IMG/VR virus record: IMGVR_UViG_3300033143_002274
Span: 1 to 64,000 of that record
DNA length: 64,000 bases
Direction: 5' to 3' (one strand)
Origin: a virus
The notes beneath the pieces were generated by a model. The model was not told the origin of the DNA, ran no database searches, and saw only the letters and a list, made by a program, of their open reading frames with translations. The translations under genes were made by a program, and so were the position numbers. This document shows positions 187-56,538 of the stretch, in pieces (the stretch's first letter is position 1; each line of letters begins with the position of its first letter).

Positions 187-654
187 TTAAAGATCATTGA
201 ACCTTGTTGATTCTATATAGAACTTATCAATTGATTCATTCTCTTTCTTGTTCTTATTCCATTTCTTTAAAAATTTATAGGCACGTTTCATCCGTATGCG
301 TTCTTCCAATGTCATGTTGATGAATATTGAATGTTCTCTTGCTACATTGTCATCCCTATAACTTTTATCCATTAACTTATTGTGTATGAATGTTACACGT
401 ATATTACCACGCACCATATCAGAAAACATTGTTGTTTCGTTGTAATTAGCTACATCTAATTTCCATTCAATAGGATGTTCATAGGCACTTTCATAAATGA
501 AATTAAACATATCACGTCTGCGTTTGTCTGACGAAAACACCTTACACACACCAGCATCATACAACTGCTTTAATTTAACTACACCCATAATGAGTACCCA
601 CATTATCAATGAGAATATCATCAAAATCCAAAACGCTTTTTGCCCTTCAGTCAT
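187..654 (-). CDS. hypothetical protein with N-terminal TM segment
   Basis: 155-aa ORF coupled to the upstream gene. Confidence 0.7.
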   Translation of the reverse strand: MTEGQKAFWILMIFSLIMWVLIMGVVKLKQLYDAGVCKVFSSDKRRRDMFNFIYESAYEHPIEWKLDVANYNETTMFSDMVRGNIRVTFIHNKLMDKSYRDDNVAREHSIFINMTLEERIRMKRAYKFLKKWNKNKKENESIDKFYIESTRFNDL

Positions 655-1646
655 TACAGTCCCACAATACTATCAATATGTTTAAAGTACCATACTCGTG
701 CTTTTTTACCAAGATCCCGACTGATATCTTTTTTGGTTAAACCAGATGCTTCTAACACATCAGATTCTTCTTTCATCACATCAGCGAACACCCAAGACAA
801 AAAAGTACCTGTTTCTTCTTGGGTAATGTTCATGTCCATTTCAACAAGGTAATCAATACCCTGACATAAACGATTGTCAGTTACTACTCTGTCGATAAAC
901 TCTGCAACAGATTTGAGTTTGACCACATCAACTTCCACTAACTTTTTCACTTTGCTAACAGAATGTTTTTCACCTTTCACTTTAAACCAGAAGTCAGATG
1001 ATTCATATCCTTCAGTAGTACATTTCCACACAACACCTTCGCCAATACCATTTTTGTTGAAGTGTTTGCCTACTGGACATTCTGCTTCAACTTCATTAGT
1101 TATAGTAACCAAATCATTAGTATGTAATGCAGGATTACTGAAATCAATTTCCATTTCATACGTTTCAAATGAATTGATGTCATATATACCAAGATGCTTT
1201 AGGTAATTGAAATCAATTACTTCATCCAGTTTAGTATGGTCTTGTCGTACTACAATTTCACCTTCACCATAAGATATGGCGAACACCACAAACATCTTAG
1301 AGAGTTGTGAGAGTGCCACACCTTTTTGTATACCTTCACCACACCACTCACCGTATATTGTTATAGGTGACATAGTATCAACAGGCACACTGACACTAAT
1401 TTGGATTGATAATATATGGTCTTTGATAAATTCAACAAATCCATAATGACCTTTATCAACAATATTATTGCGTGATTGTACCTGATAAGAACCATCACCA
1501 TGTAATACAACAGCCGCATTAGTACCATGAAGTTTCACAGTACCTCTGAAAGCTAACGTGGGGGGCAACTCGTTATGGTACTTTGCTCTGTCATTAACAT
1601 GTTTGCATGTGCTTCTGAACTGTTCGATACTTGGAAACTTTATCAT
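654..1646 (-). CDS. RNA ligase, Rnl2 family
   Basis: Nucleotidyltransferase motifs KLHGTN (I), YGEWCG (III), FVVFAI (IIIa), EGVVW (IV), FKVK (V). Confidence 0.85.
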   Translation of the reverse strand: MIKFPSIEQFRSTCKHVNDRAKYHNELPPTLAFRGTVKLHGTNAAVVLHGDGSYQVQSRNNIVDKGHYGFVEFIKDHILSIQISVSVPVDTMSPITIYGEWCGEGIQKGVALSQLSKMFVVFAISYGEGEIVVRQDHTKLDEVIDFNYLKHLGIYDINSFETYEMEIDFSNPALHTNDLVTITNEVEAECPVGKHFNKNGIGEGVVWKCTTEGYESSDFWFKVKGEKHSVSKVKKLVEVDVVKLKSVAEFIDRVVTDNRLCQGIDYLVEMDMNITQEETGTFLSWVFADVMKEESDVLEASGLTKKDISRDLGKKARVWYFKHIDSIVGL

Positions 1647-3778: not shown

Positions 3779-3855
3779 TGGTGGGTCTGGATGGACTTGA
3801 ACCATCGACCAATGAATTATGAGTTCACTGCTCTGACCATCTGAGCTACAGACCC
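3779..3855 (-). tRNA. tRNA with CAT anticodon, probably Ile2 (lysidine type)
   Basis: GGGTCTG acceptor (Ile-like), GTGAA-CTCATAA-TTCAT anticodon arm, ACCA end. Confidence 0.9.
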
Positions 3856-5109: not shown

Positions 5110-5975
5110 AAGAAGGTTGAGATTACGCCTTTTATAGTATACCTTTCATCGGATTACCATACATGGGCTACATATATGTTGCCGACTTATCCACAAACGA
5201 CCACATATAGTGCGCCGTTTGTAATATACCGTGATTGCCTTTTTGATGGTGGCGTTTCCATTTACACTCTAAACTACTCTAGCTTCGGACTACCGATTGG
5301 GTATGCCTACCTTCTCGTGCGCTTTCACTAAAATGCTAATCTCTTTGCGGGATCATAGCACCCTTCATTCTTACAAGTAAGTGAAGGTTTAAATCACTTT
5401 CGTTTAAAGCAGGACAACACTTTTGCTTTTGATCGGACTCGAACCGATGACACAAAGATTAAGAGTCTTTTGCTCTACCAACTGAGCTACTATTTTAAGT
5501 TCACGATTATGTGGTTGTCCAATAGCTTCATACTCTTTTGGAGCACAAAATACCAAACATAACCTGTCGTTCGTCTTAGTCAGACTAATAAACCGTACTT
5601 CAAGTGTTTTACCACTATGATACTATGCACCGCGCTTATCCACTATAGACTCGCACTTATGCACTACTGATTAACCGTATTGCTATGTAATATTAGTATG
5701 TAGTGAGTTGGGTACTACCCCAATCTCTGTATATTCGTGTTCCTTCACAACCGAAGTTAAATGAAGCACTTAAACATACAATTCGTTCCACTACTATTAC
5801 GTCAGCCTTTAGCTCCGTATCAATGAAGCACATCCTTTCAGATGCAGGTTTCAGCTTTTATGGATTGACTATCCGAAGATAGCGATAGCTTGTGAGACTA
5901 CCTTTACAGATGTTGCCACCTGCTGTCATTGCCATACCAAGAACCCGCATTATACAGATCGAAAACTGATTGTAA
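5110..5975 (-). ncRNA. large structured ncRNA, probably GOLLD-like
   Basis: ~860 nt with no credible ORF, many short helices/tetraloops, follows a tRNA array, contains a tRNA module, ends ...AAGGCGTAATCTCAACCTT. Family call is from recalled resemblance only. Confidence 0.6.
5431..5490 (-). ncRNA. tRNA-Lys(CTT) D/anticodon/T core without acceptor stem, embedded in the large ncRNA
   Basis: TAGCTCAGTTGGTAGAGC, AAAGA-CTCTTAA-TCTTT, ATCGG-TTCGAGT-CCGAT; flanks do not form an acceptor stem; no CCA. Confidence 0.8.
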
Positions 5976-6001: not shown

Positions 6002-6084
6002 TGGTACTCAGGGTGGGAGTCGAACCCACAAGGGTCTGGTTTCTAAAACCAGTAGCTGTGCCAATTTACATTAACCACCTGAGC
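6002..6084 (-). tRNA. tRNA-Leu(TAG), short variable loop and enlarged D region
   Basis: CTGGT-TTTAGAA-ACCAG anticodon arm, GTGGG-TTCGACT-CCCAC T arm, ACCA. Confidence 0.85.
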
Positions 6085-6090
6085 ATAATT

Positions 6091-6178
6091 TGGTGCGAAA
6101 GGGGAGGATCGAACTCCCATGATCATTACAATCGGCAGATTTTAAGTCTGCTGCATATACCAATTTCGCCACAATCGC
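6091..6178 (-). tRNA. tRNA-Leu(TAA)
   Basis: GCAGA-CTTAAAA-TCTGC, long variable arm, two U-U mismatches in acceptor. Confidence 0.9.
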
Positions 6179-6181
6179 ATT

Positions 6182-6274
6182 TGGTGGTTGTGGATGGAAT
6201 CGAACCATCACAGTGTCCAGCACCTGTACAGGATTACAATCTGTCTCCGCTTAACCAATATCGAACTCACAACC
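6182..6274 (-). tRNA. tRNA-Tyr(GTA)
   Basis: ACAGA-TTGTAAT-CCTGT, long variable arm, ACCA. Confidence 0.85.
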
Positions 6275-6279
6275 TTGTT

Positions 6280-6366
6280 TGGCAGAAAGCAGTGGTATCG
6301 AACCACAACCCTTTCGGATCTAACGACTTAGCAGGTCGCAGCAATCACCATCATGCTTTACTTTCT
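6280..6366 (-). tRNA. tRNA-Ser(GCT)
   Basis: GCGAC-CTGCTAA-GTCGT, long variable arm, GCCA. Confidence 0.9.
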
Positions 6367-6371
6367 ATAAT

Positions 6372-6494
6372 TTATTTTGGGATTCCTATCCCCCAGCTTC
6401 TACGACATGCTTTCATAGAATCACGTTTAACATCAGACACCCATTTGAGTGCTTTCTTTCTGGCAAATCTTTTATCACGTTTCATTTTTGTCAT
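6372..6494 (-). CDS. 40-aa basic peptide inside the tRNA array
   Basis: AGAGGA SD then MTKMKRDKRFARKKALKW...; fills the gap between two Ser tRNAs. Confidence 0.6.
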   Translation of the reverse strand: MTKMKRDKRFARKKALKWVSDVKRDSMKACRRSWGIGIPK

Positions 6495-6515
6495 AACACT
6501 TTCCTCTATTAAATT

Positions 6516-6599
6516 TGGCAGAAGATAGAGTAATCGAAACCCCAACGTTTCCGTTGCCACAGGGTTCAAACCTGCTTTGCCACCTTGACGGTATCTTCT
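6516..6599 (-). tRNA. tRNA-Ser(TGA)
   Basis: GCAGG-TTTGAAC-CCTGT, long variable arm, GCCA. Confidence 0.85.
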
Positions 6600-6603
6600 T
6601 TAA

Positions 6604-6690
6604 ACGCTAACTAAAAGTTAGCGGTACTTTTTCAGTACTACCACACCTTACAATTGGAGGTGGTGATCCAGTGACTGAGTGAGTCACACA
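6604..6690 (-). ncRNA. small multi-hairpin RNA between tRNAs
   Basis: Helices GTGACT/AGTCAC, CACCT/AGGTG, GTAC/GTAC, CGCTAAC/GTTAGCG. Confidence 0.4.
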
Positions 6691-6696
6691 CTAAAC

Positions 6697-6767
6697 TGGC
6701 ACAAAGTATAGGAGTCGAACCCATCTTTTGAGTCTTGGAGGCTCATAGTTCCCACGAACAACAATGC
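6697..6767 (-). tRNA. tRNA-Trp(CCA), atypical
   Basis: TGAGC-CTCCAAG-ACTCA anticodon arm, G73, CCA; short D arm and U-U acceptor mismatches. Confidence 0.75.
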
Positions 6768-6773
6768 ACTAAC

Positions 6774-6849
6774 TGGTCAGGGATACACGATTCGAACGTG
6801 TGAAACTCGCGTCCAAGGCGAGGACTTTACCAGACTAAGCTAATCCCTG
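6774..6849 (-). tRNA. tRNA-Pro(TGG)
   Basis: C1-G72, CTCGC-CTTGGAC-GCGAG, ACCA. Confidence 0.9.
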
Positions 6850-6857
6850 TTAAAACT

Positions 6858-6932
6858 TGGCAGGAGTGGAAGGTATTGATCCCTCTCATGTCGGTTTCAA
6901 AAACCGATGCGTTCCCATTTCGCCACACTCCT
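6858..6932 (-). tRNA. tRNA-Gln(TTG), atypical T loop
   Basis: TCGGT-TTTTGAA-ACCGA; T loop ATCAATA; GCCA. Confidence 0.85.
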
Positions 6933-6953
6933 ATATAACTTTTCTACTCCCAT

Positions 6954-6988
6954 AAAAAAAGGGTGAGTAAACTTTCGTCTACTCACCC
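6954..6988 (-). terminator. intrinsic terminator (attenuator) upstream of the tRNA array
   Basis: GGGTGAGTAGAC-GAAA-GTTTACTCACCC followed by T7. Confidence 0.9.
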
Positions 6989-7020
6989 TGATAAAATTCT
7001 TAATGTTAATTTACATTAGC

Positions 7021-7098
7021 TCACAGGCAAGTAGTCCTCTCCGATAATAACGGATAAGATTGCGACCAACTAAGCTGTAGTGATGTAAATGTTTTCAT
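7021..7098 (-). CDS. attenuator leader peptide MKTFTSLQLSWSQSYPLLSERTTCL
   Basis: Leaderless ORF directly after the promoter; core codons match the downstream tRNAs; 3' end is complementary to the terminator 5' arm. Confidence 0.75.
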   Translation of the reverse strand: MKTFTSLQLSWSQSYPLLSERTTCL

Positions 7099-7103
7099 GT
7101 AGG

Positions 7104-7134
7104 TATTTATACTCTTTCTTCTATTTAGTGTCAA
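7104..7134 (-). promoter_or_regulatory. composite sigma70 (TTGACA-17-TATAAA) and T4-type late (TATAAATA) promoter of the tRNA operon
   Basis: Read directly; the ATG is 7 nt after the -10 hexamer. Confidence 0.85.
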
Positions 7135-7141
7135 TCTTTTT

Positions 7142-7357
7142 CTAAAACCAATTTCCTTGTGAGTCCAGCATAACTTCTTTCCCGCATTTAGAGCAGGTAG
7201 CATGGATGCTGCACCCATCAAAACTCTTAGACCCACCATTACCGTTATGCCACCCAAACTGCTTACATGCGTAGGTAGTCCCCTTCCATCGGTCAATCAG
7301 TAATAAAACGAATGGGTACGCAAACATTATCACCAAAATAATTAAAACATACTCCAT
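7142..7357 (-). CDS. hypothetical membrane protein with Cys/His motif
   Basis: TM segment plus C..FGWH...CSKC. Confidence 0.7.
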   Translation of the reverse strand: MEYVLIILVIMFAYPFVLLLIDRWKGTTYACKQFGWHNGNGGSKSFDGCSIHATCSKCGKEVMLDSQGNWF

Positions 7358-8109
7358 TATTTTATCCTCTTTCCGTTTCTCTTTGTTGGAAATTTTTTGA
7401 AACTCATTTTATCAAATCCCTTTTGGTTAATCATATCTTTGTCACTGATATTGATAATTTCCTTTTCGGTACAACCAAGTACCCCAAAGTAATACATTTC
7501 AAGTTCTTGATAGGCAGTGTAAGTATCAATCACCTTATGAAATTTAAGAACACCTAATGGTGGATTCACTTCAAACTTAAAACCATTTTTACCACTTGCA
7601 TATGATGTAAACGTCAGAGTGAACATAGGTGACTTAAGTTTGATAAACAACTCAGCAAATTTATCTGTCCCATGCCATTCATCCAAGTAACTTGAAATGT
7701 ACTTGTCACTGTCATCCCATCTACGCCACGAATACTTACTACTGTGGTCTGTGAAATAATACTCTTTAAACTTCTTATCTGTTATTTTGGTGTTGATGAA
7801 TTTACGATACTGATCAACAGTGTAGAATGTATCTTCCTGTAGTGTTATACATTTGGGTTTATCATAGGTGACTCTCAGTGCAGGGTATACCTTCCCACAA
7901 AATCCAACTATGGTGACTTCTGTTGTGAATGGTCTGCTTTGATTAGGAGAATACCGTAATATACCTTTGATGTTGTCCATCATGCTATTCGATATTTCAT
8001 TAAACGGAAGGACAACCTCAGATACATTTCTGACGAACACATCAGGATCATCACCGACATACTTCATCACTGAATCATAGTAATCATGATACTTAGATAT
8101 TATTCTCAT
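7357..8109 (-). CDS. hypothetical phage protein
   Basis: 250-aa ORF (MRIISKYHDYYD; VGFCGKVYP). Confidence 0.8.
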   Translation of the reverse strand: MRIISKYHDYYDSVMKYVGDDPDVFVRNVSEVVLPFNEISNSMMDNIKGILRYSPNQSRPFTTEVTIVGFCGKVYPALRVTYDKPKCITLQEDTFYTVDQYRKFINTKITDKKFKEYYFTDHSSKYSWRRWDDSDKYISSYLDEWHGTDKFAELFIKLKSPMFTLTFTSYASGKNGFKFEVNPPLGVLKFHKVIDTYTAYQELEMYYFGVLGCTEKEIINISDKDMINQKGFDKMSFKKFPTKRNGKRIK

Positions 8110-19131: not shown

Positions 19132-19463
19132 TAAGAATCACGTTTCTCAAAATCATTCTCTTTAAGAAGTGTAGTCAAATCTTGTCCGTCTGTTAGTTCA
19201 ACAGAGGCAATGTAACGTCCGTACTTACCTGTTTTAGATGTTCTGATGATAATGTAAGTATCTAACATCAATGCTGTCACAAACGCTTTAGCGGCGTTAC
19301 CATGAGTACGTTCAGCTTCATTTGTTGGTCTGTATGATTCAGGTGTGTCTATATCAGCTAATCTTAGCTTGGTTGTGATAGTCATTTGAAAACCAACATC
19401 AATTTCACATTCAAACGTATCACCATCTAAAATTCTTATAACTTTCGCTTTGTATGTATACAT
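19128..19463 (-). CDS. thermonuclease (SNase) family
   Basis: DGDT, RLADIDTPE, GKYGRYIA. Confidence 0.92.
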   Translation of the reverse strand: MYTYKAKVIRILDGDTFECEIDVGFQMTITTKLRLADIDTPESYRPTNEAERTHGNAAKAFVTALMLDTYIIIRTSKTGKYGRYIASVELTDGQDLTTLLKENDFEKRDSY

Positions 19464-56262: not shown

Positions 56263-56538
56263 TTAAATTTGTCTGGTGAAAATAGAATCAGCAGTATATC
56301 CAGCAAGCAGTGCTGCAATATATGAGATTTCGCCAGTTGATATCATCAAGAAGAATCCAGCAATACCACCCAACACAGATAATGTCGTTTGATAAGGGAA
56401 TTTCATGAAGTAATCTTTCGGTGAAATTAGTGTGCCTTGCTTGTTTAGTTCAGCAAGTTTTTTAACCATATGAGCAATAACGCCCATTGCCATTGCACCA
56501 AAGTAAAGTCCGTATTGTAAGTAGTTAATATCTTCCAT
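56263..56538 (-). CDS. putative holin
   Basis: Small 3-TM protein next to the endolysin. Confidence 0.65.
   Translation of the reverse strand: MEDINYLQYGLYFGAMAMGVIAHMVKKLAELNKQGTLISPKDYFMKFPYQTTLSVLGGIAGFFLMISTGEISYIAALLAGYTADSIFTRQI

Follow-up and report, generated by a model that had tools for sequence, protein, structure and literature searches.

A candidate leader-peptide attenuator whose codons match the eight-gene tRNA array behind it in an uncultured jumbo phage

The DNA analysed here, called the window throughout, comprises positions 1 to 64,000 of the IMG/VR virus record IMGVR_UViG_3300033143_002274 (64,000 nucleotides, nt). The source record is a 75-kilobase (kb) viral contig, estimated to be one third complete, from an uncultured jumbo phage, and its major head protein is 40-46% identical to the counterparts in an Alishewanella phage, PA5oct and Rak2-like jumbo phages. 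The minus strand carries a promoter, a 25-codon leader open reading frame (ORF), an intrinsic terminator and an array of eight transfer RNA (tRNA) genes, which together may form an attenuator that lets the leader peptide control the array.

The -35 hexamer TTGACA (7129-7134) is followed, after 17 nt, by the -10 element TATAAA(TA) at 7104-7111, which is at the same time a perfect T4-type late-promoter box, TATAAATA. The promoter is therefore predicted to be both sigma-70-like and of the T4-late type, with the transcription start placed on, or adjoining, the A of the leader ATG and a leaderless 25-codon messenger RNA (mRNA) as its output. This ATG (7098-7096), located 5 nt past TATAAATA, opens the leader ORF MKTFTSLQLSWSQSYPLLSERTTCL (7021-7098), whose 25 codons are closed by a TGA at 7023-7021. 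An earlier, sequence-only reading of this DNA had described the same arrangement, TTGACA-17-TATAAA(TA) with the predicted start on or next to the ATG of a 25-codon ORF, and our analysis confirmed it at 7134-7021 on the minus strand.

The terminator (6954-6989) begins 31 bases past the leader stop and is made of a 13-base-pair (bp) stem (6989-6960), a GAAA loop and a run of seven T. The tRNA-Gln gene starts at 6932, 21 nt beyond, and a promoter scan of these 21 nt detected no promoter-like site between the terminator and tRNA-Gln, so the array depends on read-through of the terminator. A terminator that separates leader and genes with no promoter behind it is what is expected of an attenuator.

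The tRNA genes were called with ARAGORN and Rfam (RF00005). They follow in the order tRNA-Gln(TTG) (6858-6932, 55.6 bits), Pro(TGG) (6774-6849, 58.6 bits), Trp(CCA) (6697-6767, 15.1 bits, below threshold, non-canonical with mismatches in the acceptor and anticodon stems), Ser(TGA) (6516-6599), then a 41-codon ORF, Ser(GCT) (6280-6366, 37 bits), Tyr(GTA) (6182-6274, 31.7 bits), Leu(TAA) (6091-6178, 45 bits) and a tRNA-like Leu(TAG) (6002-6084, 26 bits, below threshold), where the array ends at 6002. The Ser(TGA) gene, whose D arm is weak and whose T stem contains G-U pairs, is a candidate recognised by eye only; in the window it was called by neither ARAGORN nor Rfam. In Leu(TAG) a 6-bp hairpin and a 7-nt linker replace the D arm, while the acceptor stem, the T arm and the CCA are intact.

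Codons 6-19 of the leader (7042-7083), to which we refer as the sensor, are TCA CTA CAG CTT AGT TGG TCG CAA TCT TAT CCG TTA TTA TCG, exactly as the sequence-only reading had given them. They encode Ser, Leu, Gln, Trp, Tyr and Pro only, the amino acids of the downstream array, and sample all eight of its anticodons. The cognate residues are concentrated in this run: there are none in the five codons before it and only the final Leu among the six after it. Thus the leader is enriched in codons for precisely what the operon would supply, as in known attenuators.

This 14-codon run is the longest cognate run in the six frames of the 64 kb, the runner-up being 10 codons long. From the drop in the counts of cognate runs, by a factor of 0.37 per added codon, runs of at least 14 codons are expected by chance 0.05 times per window and 8e-5 times in the 200 nt before the array on one strand. 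The probability that 14 cognate codons sample all eight tRNAs is 0.11, and the joint chance of the run and the full sampling is about 1e-5 per array. A pure coincidence drawn out of a very large scan has in its favour that many windows were scanned, that codons 6-19 were chosen after the fact and that Ser and Leu alone account for 12 of the 61 sense codons. We nevertheless consider it very improbable, given this joint chance together with the independent antiterminator signal and the retention of the match in a diverged homologue, both described below.

The sequence-only reading had also claimed that the last leader codons can pair with the 5' arm of the terminator. This pairing is real. Region 2, the predicted 5' strand of the antiterminator (CUACUUGCCUGUG, about 7020-7035), holds the last leader codons and the stop, and the duplex of CTACTTGCCTG with CAGGGTGAGTAG, joining region 2 to the terminator 5' arm, reaches -15.2 kcal/mol. 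Equally strong pairing was found in 0.3-1.4% of dinucleotide shuffles and in 2.8% of genomic segments (P=0.003-0.03). When nt 1-30 to 1-63 of the transcript were masked to mimic a stalled ribosome, the antiterminator was the minimum-energy fold up to the terminator loop, at -15.7 kcal/mol. The window thus contains a predicted antiterminator that shares the 5' arm of the terminator and has the leader UGA inside region 2, an arrangement typical of attenuators.

The whole module is also present in a second viral contig, L089, and a third one, L097, has the same leader as L089 and ends just past the stop codon. Comparison of L089 with the window showed hardly any change in the promoter hexamers, region 2, the spacer or the terminator: TTGACA, as read in the sequence, is the same in both, the terminator of L089 differs only by having one T fewer, and region 2 is unchanged, with a C to T change in its partner that turns a G-C pair into G-U. 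The leader ORF of L089, MKTFTLQFSWSLSYPLLEDATCL, has accumulated ten base differences and two 3-nt insertions or deletions (indels) and is still open, the frame being kept in L097 as well. Six of the changes fall in the sensor, where four are synonymous, one replaces Gln by Leu and one replaces Leu by Phe (CTT to TTT), so that five of the six stay inside the cognate set. Of the 12 sensor codons in L089, 11 are cognate, and all eight tRNAs are still sampled because the loss of CTA at one position is offset by its gain elsewhere.

In the array of L089 all eight anticodons recur in unchanged order. The genes for Gln, Trp, Ser(TGA) and Tyr are there strongly diverged from those of the window and score better; the Trp (57.6 bits) and Ser(TGA) (38.7 bits) genes, which occupy the same slots, are canonical, and in Leu(TAG) a compensatory T-stem change distinguishes the two contigs. 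As judged from these two arrays, the set of specificities is conserved through turnover of the tRNA genes, with the leader still listing it. The calls for the eight tRNAs that the sequence-only reading placed after the terminator are uneven: five are called above threshold and L089 repeats the same eight anticodons, but in the window itself Leu(TAG) and Trp score below threshold and Ser(TGA) is uncalled.

Contigs from four marine-sediment and cold-seep studies (runs X1, X3, X5 and X6) also span the leader and carry variants of it. Among the differences listed for them, the ORF has a single indel, a 3-nt deletion at 7081 (X1 and X6), and the gap count of X1 allows no other. The similarity of X1 to the window ends at 7146, just upstream of the promoter, which indicates that the promoter belongs to the tRNA module and that promoter, leader and array travel together.

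The same comparisons bear on the main alternative, a self-contained small transcription unit that produces a structured small RNA of about 145 nt or a 25-residue mini-protein, in which a leaky terminator allows constitutive read-through into the array and the codon match is without regulatory significance. Small RNA genes usually look like this, with a promoter and a strong terminator enclosing about 145 nt, and the whole RNA folds far better than its shuffles (z=-4.6), though mostly through the terminator. Moreover, conservation is higher past the stop than within the ORF, and the CTT to TTT change of L089 breaks the codon set yet retains the predicted base pair as G-U. Such a unit does not account for the codon run itself (8e-5), for the fact that all eight tRNAs are sampled in each lineage, for indels that keep the frame or for a stop codon placed inside the segment complementary to the terminator arm, and it has no match to an Rfam family beyond the terminator. 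On this evidence we regard it as rather unlikely, although it ranks directly behind the attenuator.

An attenuator requires a leader that is translated, and other genes of the phage suggest how this could be achieved. The box TATAAATA occurs 13 times in the window against 6.9 expected, and several of these boxes lie at the usual distance upstream of a Shine-Dalgarno sequence and an ATG. Two real genes share the layout of the leader, TATAAATA-N5-ATG without a Shine-Dalgarno sequence, namely, both on the minus strand, those with an ATG at 19463 (111 amino acids, aa, nuclease-like) and at 56538 (91 aa, a membrane protein). This phage thus seems to start genes regularly on leaderless mRNAs made from T4-late-type promoters, and leaderless translation of the 25-codon leader is plausible because these two genes share its layout. 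The strongest support so far for translation of the leader comes from this shared layout, which gives the short leader ORF a usable, if predicted, start.

Several points weigh against the attenuator, and the narrow distribution of the element is one of them. Comparison of full leader sequences yielded two distinct ones only, that of the window and that of the L089/L097 type. We surveyed 96 tRNA blocks, with 318 small upstream ORFs, in distant viral and metagenome loci with the same neighbouring protein family and in six cultured large phages (Aeh1, PA5oct, PBECO4, CBB, Alishewanella Slickus01 and Vibrio phage 2.275.O). Leaders matching the tRNA content of their arrays, as the sequence-only reading would predict for related phages, were found only in part: L089 still lists its eight tRNAs, but none of the other 95 blocks has a matched leader. 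In the surveyed sample the matched-leader design therefore appears confined to this lineage. A pattern search of viral contigs for further copies of the module, using the terminator, region 2, the leader ends and the array spacer, returned only L089 and L097, and two patterns searched against genome contigs gave no match. A metagenome scan yielded nothing beyond distant relatives of the neighbouring protein, and the sole match of the leader in a blastn search of the cultured-phage collection was a weak, promoter-like one in PBECO4. Among the sequencing runs listed, no RNA dataset carries the locus. Two ORFs of the survey were considered as leaders and rejected: KKKK before a tRNA-Lys in CBB is the C-terminus of a protein, and an M/N/S-rich ORF in PBECO4 is without a terminator, the tRNA block there having its own TGATATAAT promoter.

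The other adverse points lie in the element itself. The -10 element TATAAA lacks the conserved T at -7 of the sigma-70 -10 box, for which reason the promoter scan skips it, and the leader ORF has no Shine-Dalgarno sequence whereas the neighbouring genes have one. Only five of the eight tRNAs of the window (Gln, Pro, Ser(GCT), Tyr and Leu(TAA)) are above the Rfam threshold, and three are below. In L089 a Phe codon stands inside the sensor and the 5' end is 3 nt longer. Folding with masking gave a divided answer: the antiterminator is the minimum-energy nascent fold when the sensor is masked, but the terminator (about -22 kcal/mol) prevails at equilibrium in all masked states, and the switch would therefore have to be kinetic. 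In the trp attenuator the terminator is likewise favoured at equilibrium. A hairpin between the sensor and region 2 (1:2) is predicted in both the window and L089, at -18.9 kcal/mol without a ribosome; it is no better than shuffles (z=-1.18) and has no compensatory changes, so a 1:2 element is not established. Finally, the sensor holds a 12-nt exact D-loop motif, AGCTTAGTTGGT, which alone yields Q-L-S-W.

This motif raises the alternative that the leader is a decayed tRNA gene heading the array, its frame rich in Ser, Leu, Gln and Trp as a by-product of tRNA-like sequence. The leader matches the D-loop consensus AGCTYAGTYGGT exactly, where 0.53 matches are expected at no more than one mismatch, and the only other exact occurrence of AGCTYAGTYGGT in the window is in the tRNA-like core of a GOLLD RNA; the second-longest cognate run of the window lies antisense to the same core. 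There is also a hairpin with the 7-nt loop UUAUUAU at roughly the distance of an anticodon arm. However, no RF00005 match was found over 7020-7100 at E values up to 10, and local alignment of the leader to 92 tRNAs gave a best score within the range of shuffles (P=0.22), on which grounds a tRNA relic was rejected as a full explanation. The D-loop motif accounts for no more than four or five of the 14 codons, and in L089 AGTTTAGTTGGT stands in its place. An origin of this kind, which we find improbable, would in any case not exclude later use of the sequence as a leader.

Taken together, the codon match, the terminator without a promoter behind it, the antiterminator with the stop codon inside, the frame and codon coverage kept in the homologue and the leaderless starts elsewhere in the phage make a leader-peptide (ribosome-mediated) transcription attenuator gating the eight-gene tRNA array the best explanation of the locus, and we lean slightly towards its being correct, with the unremarkable 1:2 hairpin and the absence of a match in 95 of the 96 blocks on the other side. 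The small RNA or mini-gene is its main rival, followed by the tRNA relic and by coincidence. The more specific proposal, that the phage gauges the decoding speed for eight isoacceptors in one leaderless 25-codon frame and opens exactly those eight tRNA genes when any of them lags, stands in our judgement evenly balanced between right and wrong.

In such an attenuator, a ribosome that reaches the stop smoothly would cover region 2, the terminator would form and transcription would end before tRNA-Gln. If a cognate charged tRNA were scarce, the ribosome would stall within codons 6-19 and leave region 2 free to capture the emerging 5' arm of the terminator, and RNA polymerase would then read into the tRNA genes. 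Their products would relieve the stall, giving a negative feedback on decoding capacity for eight isoacceptors of six amino acids. What makes the charged tRNA scarce in nature may be host defence, decay of host tRNAs or the demand of late genes. Amino-acid starvation, a loss of host tRNAs from whatever cause and heavy demand late in infection would all trigger the circuit alike.

Regulation by leader codons is itself well known, and its application to a tRNA array is what would be new here. The sequence-only reading had known of no earlier description for a phage tRNA array, and our full-text literature searches likewise found no leader-peptide attenuator for tRNA genes of phages or bacteria. 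The closest designs are the enterobacterial attenuators thrL (Thr and Ile), ilvL of ilvGMEDA (Ile, Leu and Val), trpL, hisL, pheL and leuL. These share with the present element a short leader ORF in which regulatory codons are clustered and whose stop adjoins or lies inside region 2, an antiterminator competing with a more stable intrinsic terminator and the lack of a promoter behind it. They differ in regulating biosynthetic enzymes, whereas here the genes are tRNAs and are borne by a phage, and in having runs of one to three amino acids, whereas here six amino acids and eight isoacceptors are each sampled one to three times. In addition, the present ORF has a leaderless predicted start without a Shine-Dalgarno sequence, has no sequence similarity to them and gave no Rfam leader match. 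T-box riboswitches, which control aminoacyl-tRNA synthetase and amino-acid genes in Gram-positive bacteria, need no translation and bind the uncharged tRNA itself, by way of a specifier codon and the acceptor end. They resemble the element in that a choice between terminator and antiterminator reports the charging state of a specific tRNA; two permissive Rfam scans found no T-box match in the window.

A comparable expression logic is known from the trn L-array of Anabaena sp. PCC 7120, a supplementary tRNA array that stays silent unless translation is impaired and shares its regulation with the RNA ligase gene rtcB (PMC8421152, PMC10272220). In contrast to the present array it is bacterial; its control relies on repeats in the promoter and on the repressor TrcR, and a leader, attenuator or terminator is mentioned in neither paper (PMC8421152, PMC10272220). 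The window also contains an RNA ligase gene (654-1646, minus strand; phrog_548, E=6e-63), about 4.4 kb downstream of the last tRNA of the array, which recalls the rtcB of Anabaena.

The sequence-only reading had further proposed that the array acts as an inducible counter-defence against host anticodon nucleases, a role for which we found no support. Phage tRNAs are known to replace limiting host tRNAs, as in the neutralisation of PARIS by the tRNAs of T5 (PMC11464382, PMC12409363) and in anticodon-loop variants (PMC10264068). In those systems no sensing or attenuation step has been described, and the published targets of the PARIS nuclease AriB are tRNA-Lys, Thr and Asn (PMC12409363, PMC11464382), none of which is present in this array.

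Further features were observed within and around the array. The 41-codon ORF between Ser(TGA) and Ser(GCT) (6372-6497, minus strand) has a Shine-Dalgarno sequence, encodes a very basic peptide (MTKMKRDKRFARKK...) and is absent from L089. The hairpin-rich spacer between Trp and Ser(TGA) (6612-6697, minus strand; 6553-6647 in L089) contains a 40-nt stretch that is identical in the two contigs although the flanking tRNAs differ, and may be a processing signal or a small RNA. An 11-mer, TAATGTAAATT, located after the leader stop (7008-7018, minus strand), recurs in the aberrant D-hairpin of Leu(TAG) (6063-6073, minus strand). The GOLLD RNA (Rfam RF02032, 174 bits, full length) lies directly after the array at 5114-5565 on the minus strand, has its own TTTACA-16-TATAAT promoter-like site (5976-5949, minus strand) and carries its tRNA-like core at 5431-5490; it is not part of the conserved module, since L089 has a protein gene at that position.

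Upstream of the promoter lies a gene for a 250-aa protein of phrog_4243 (7357-8109, minus strand; function unknown) with the conserved motifs MRIISK..DYYD and EMYYFGVLGCTE. Members of this family are encoded immediately beside tRNA genes in many viral contigs (L001, L002, L003, L005 and L089), and the closer relatives of the 250-aa protein are 82-51% identical to it. It has no relative in PDB and no Pfam family, and a 71-aa protein also has no Pfam family. Further downstream, single tRNAs (Gly-TCC and Met-CAT) and a tRNA-like element are scattered among protein genes (21-87, 98-172 and 3779-3855, minus strand); they abut ORFs, with no leader or terminator of the present kind.

Why and when phages express tRNAs has been debated for decades, and codon compensation, host tRNA decay and escape from tRNA-cleaving defences have all been proposed. 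If the attenuator described here is correct, some phages would keep their tRNAs as an on-demand supply triggered by the very defect that they repair. Classical attenuation would then reach beyond amino-acid biosynthesis into tRNA genes, and six amino acids would be sensed instead of one to three. At about 180 nt, the self-contained element is easily moved into a reporter and, if it works as proposed, would be a compact natural sensor of decoding speed for chosen codons.

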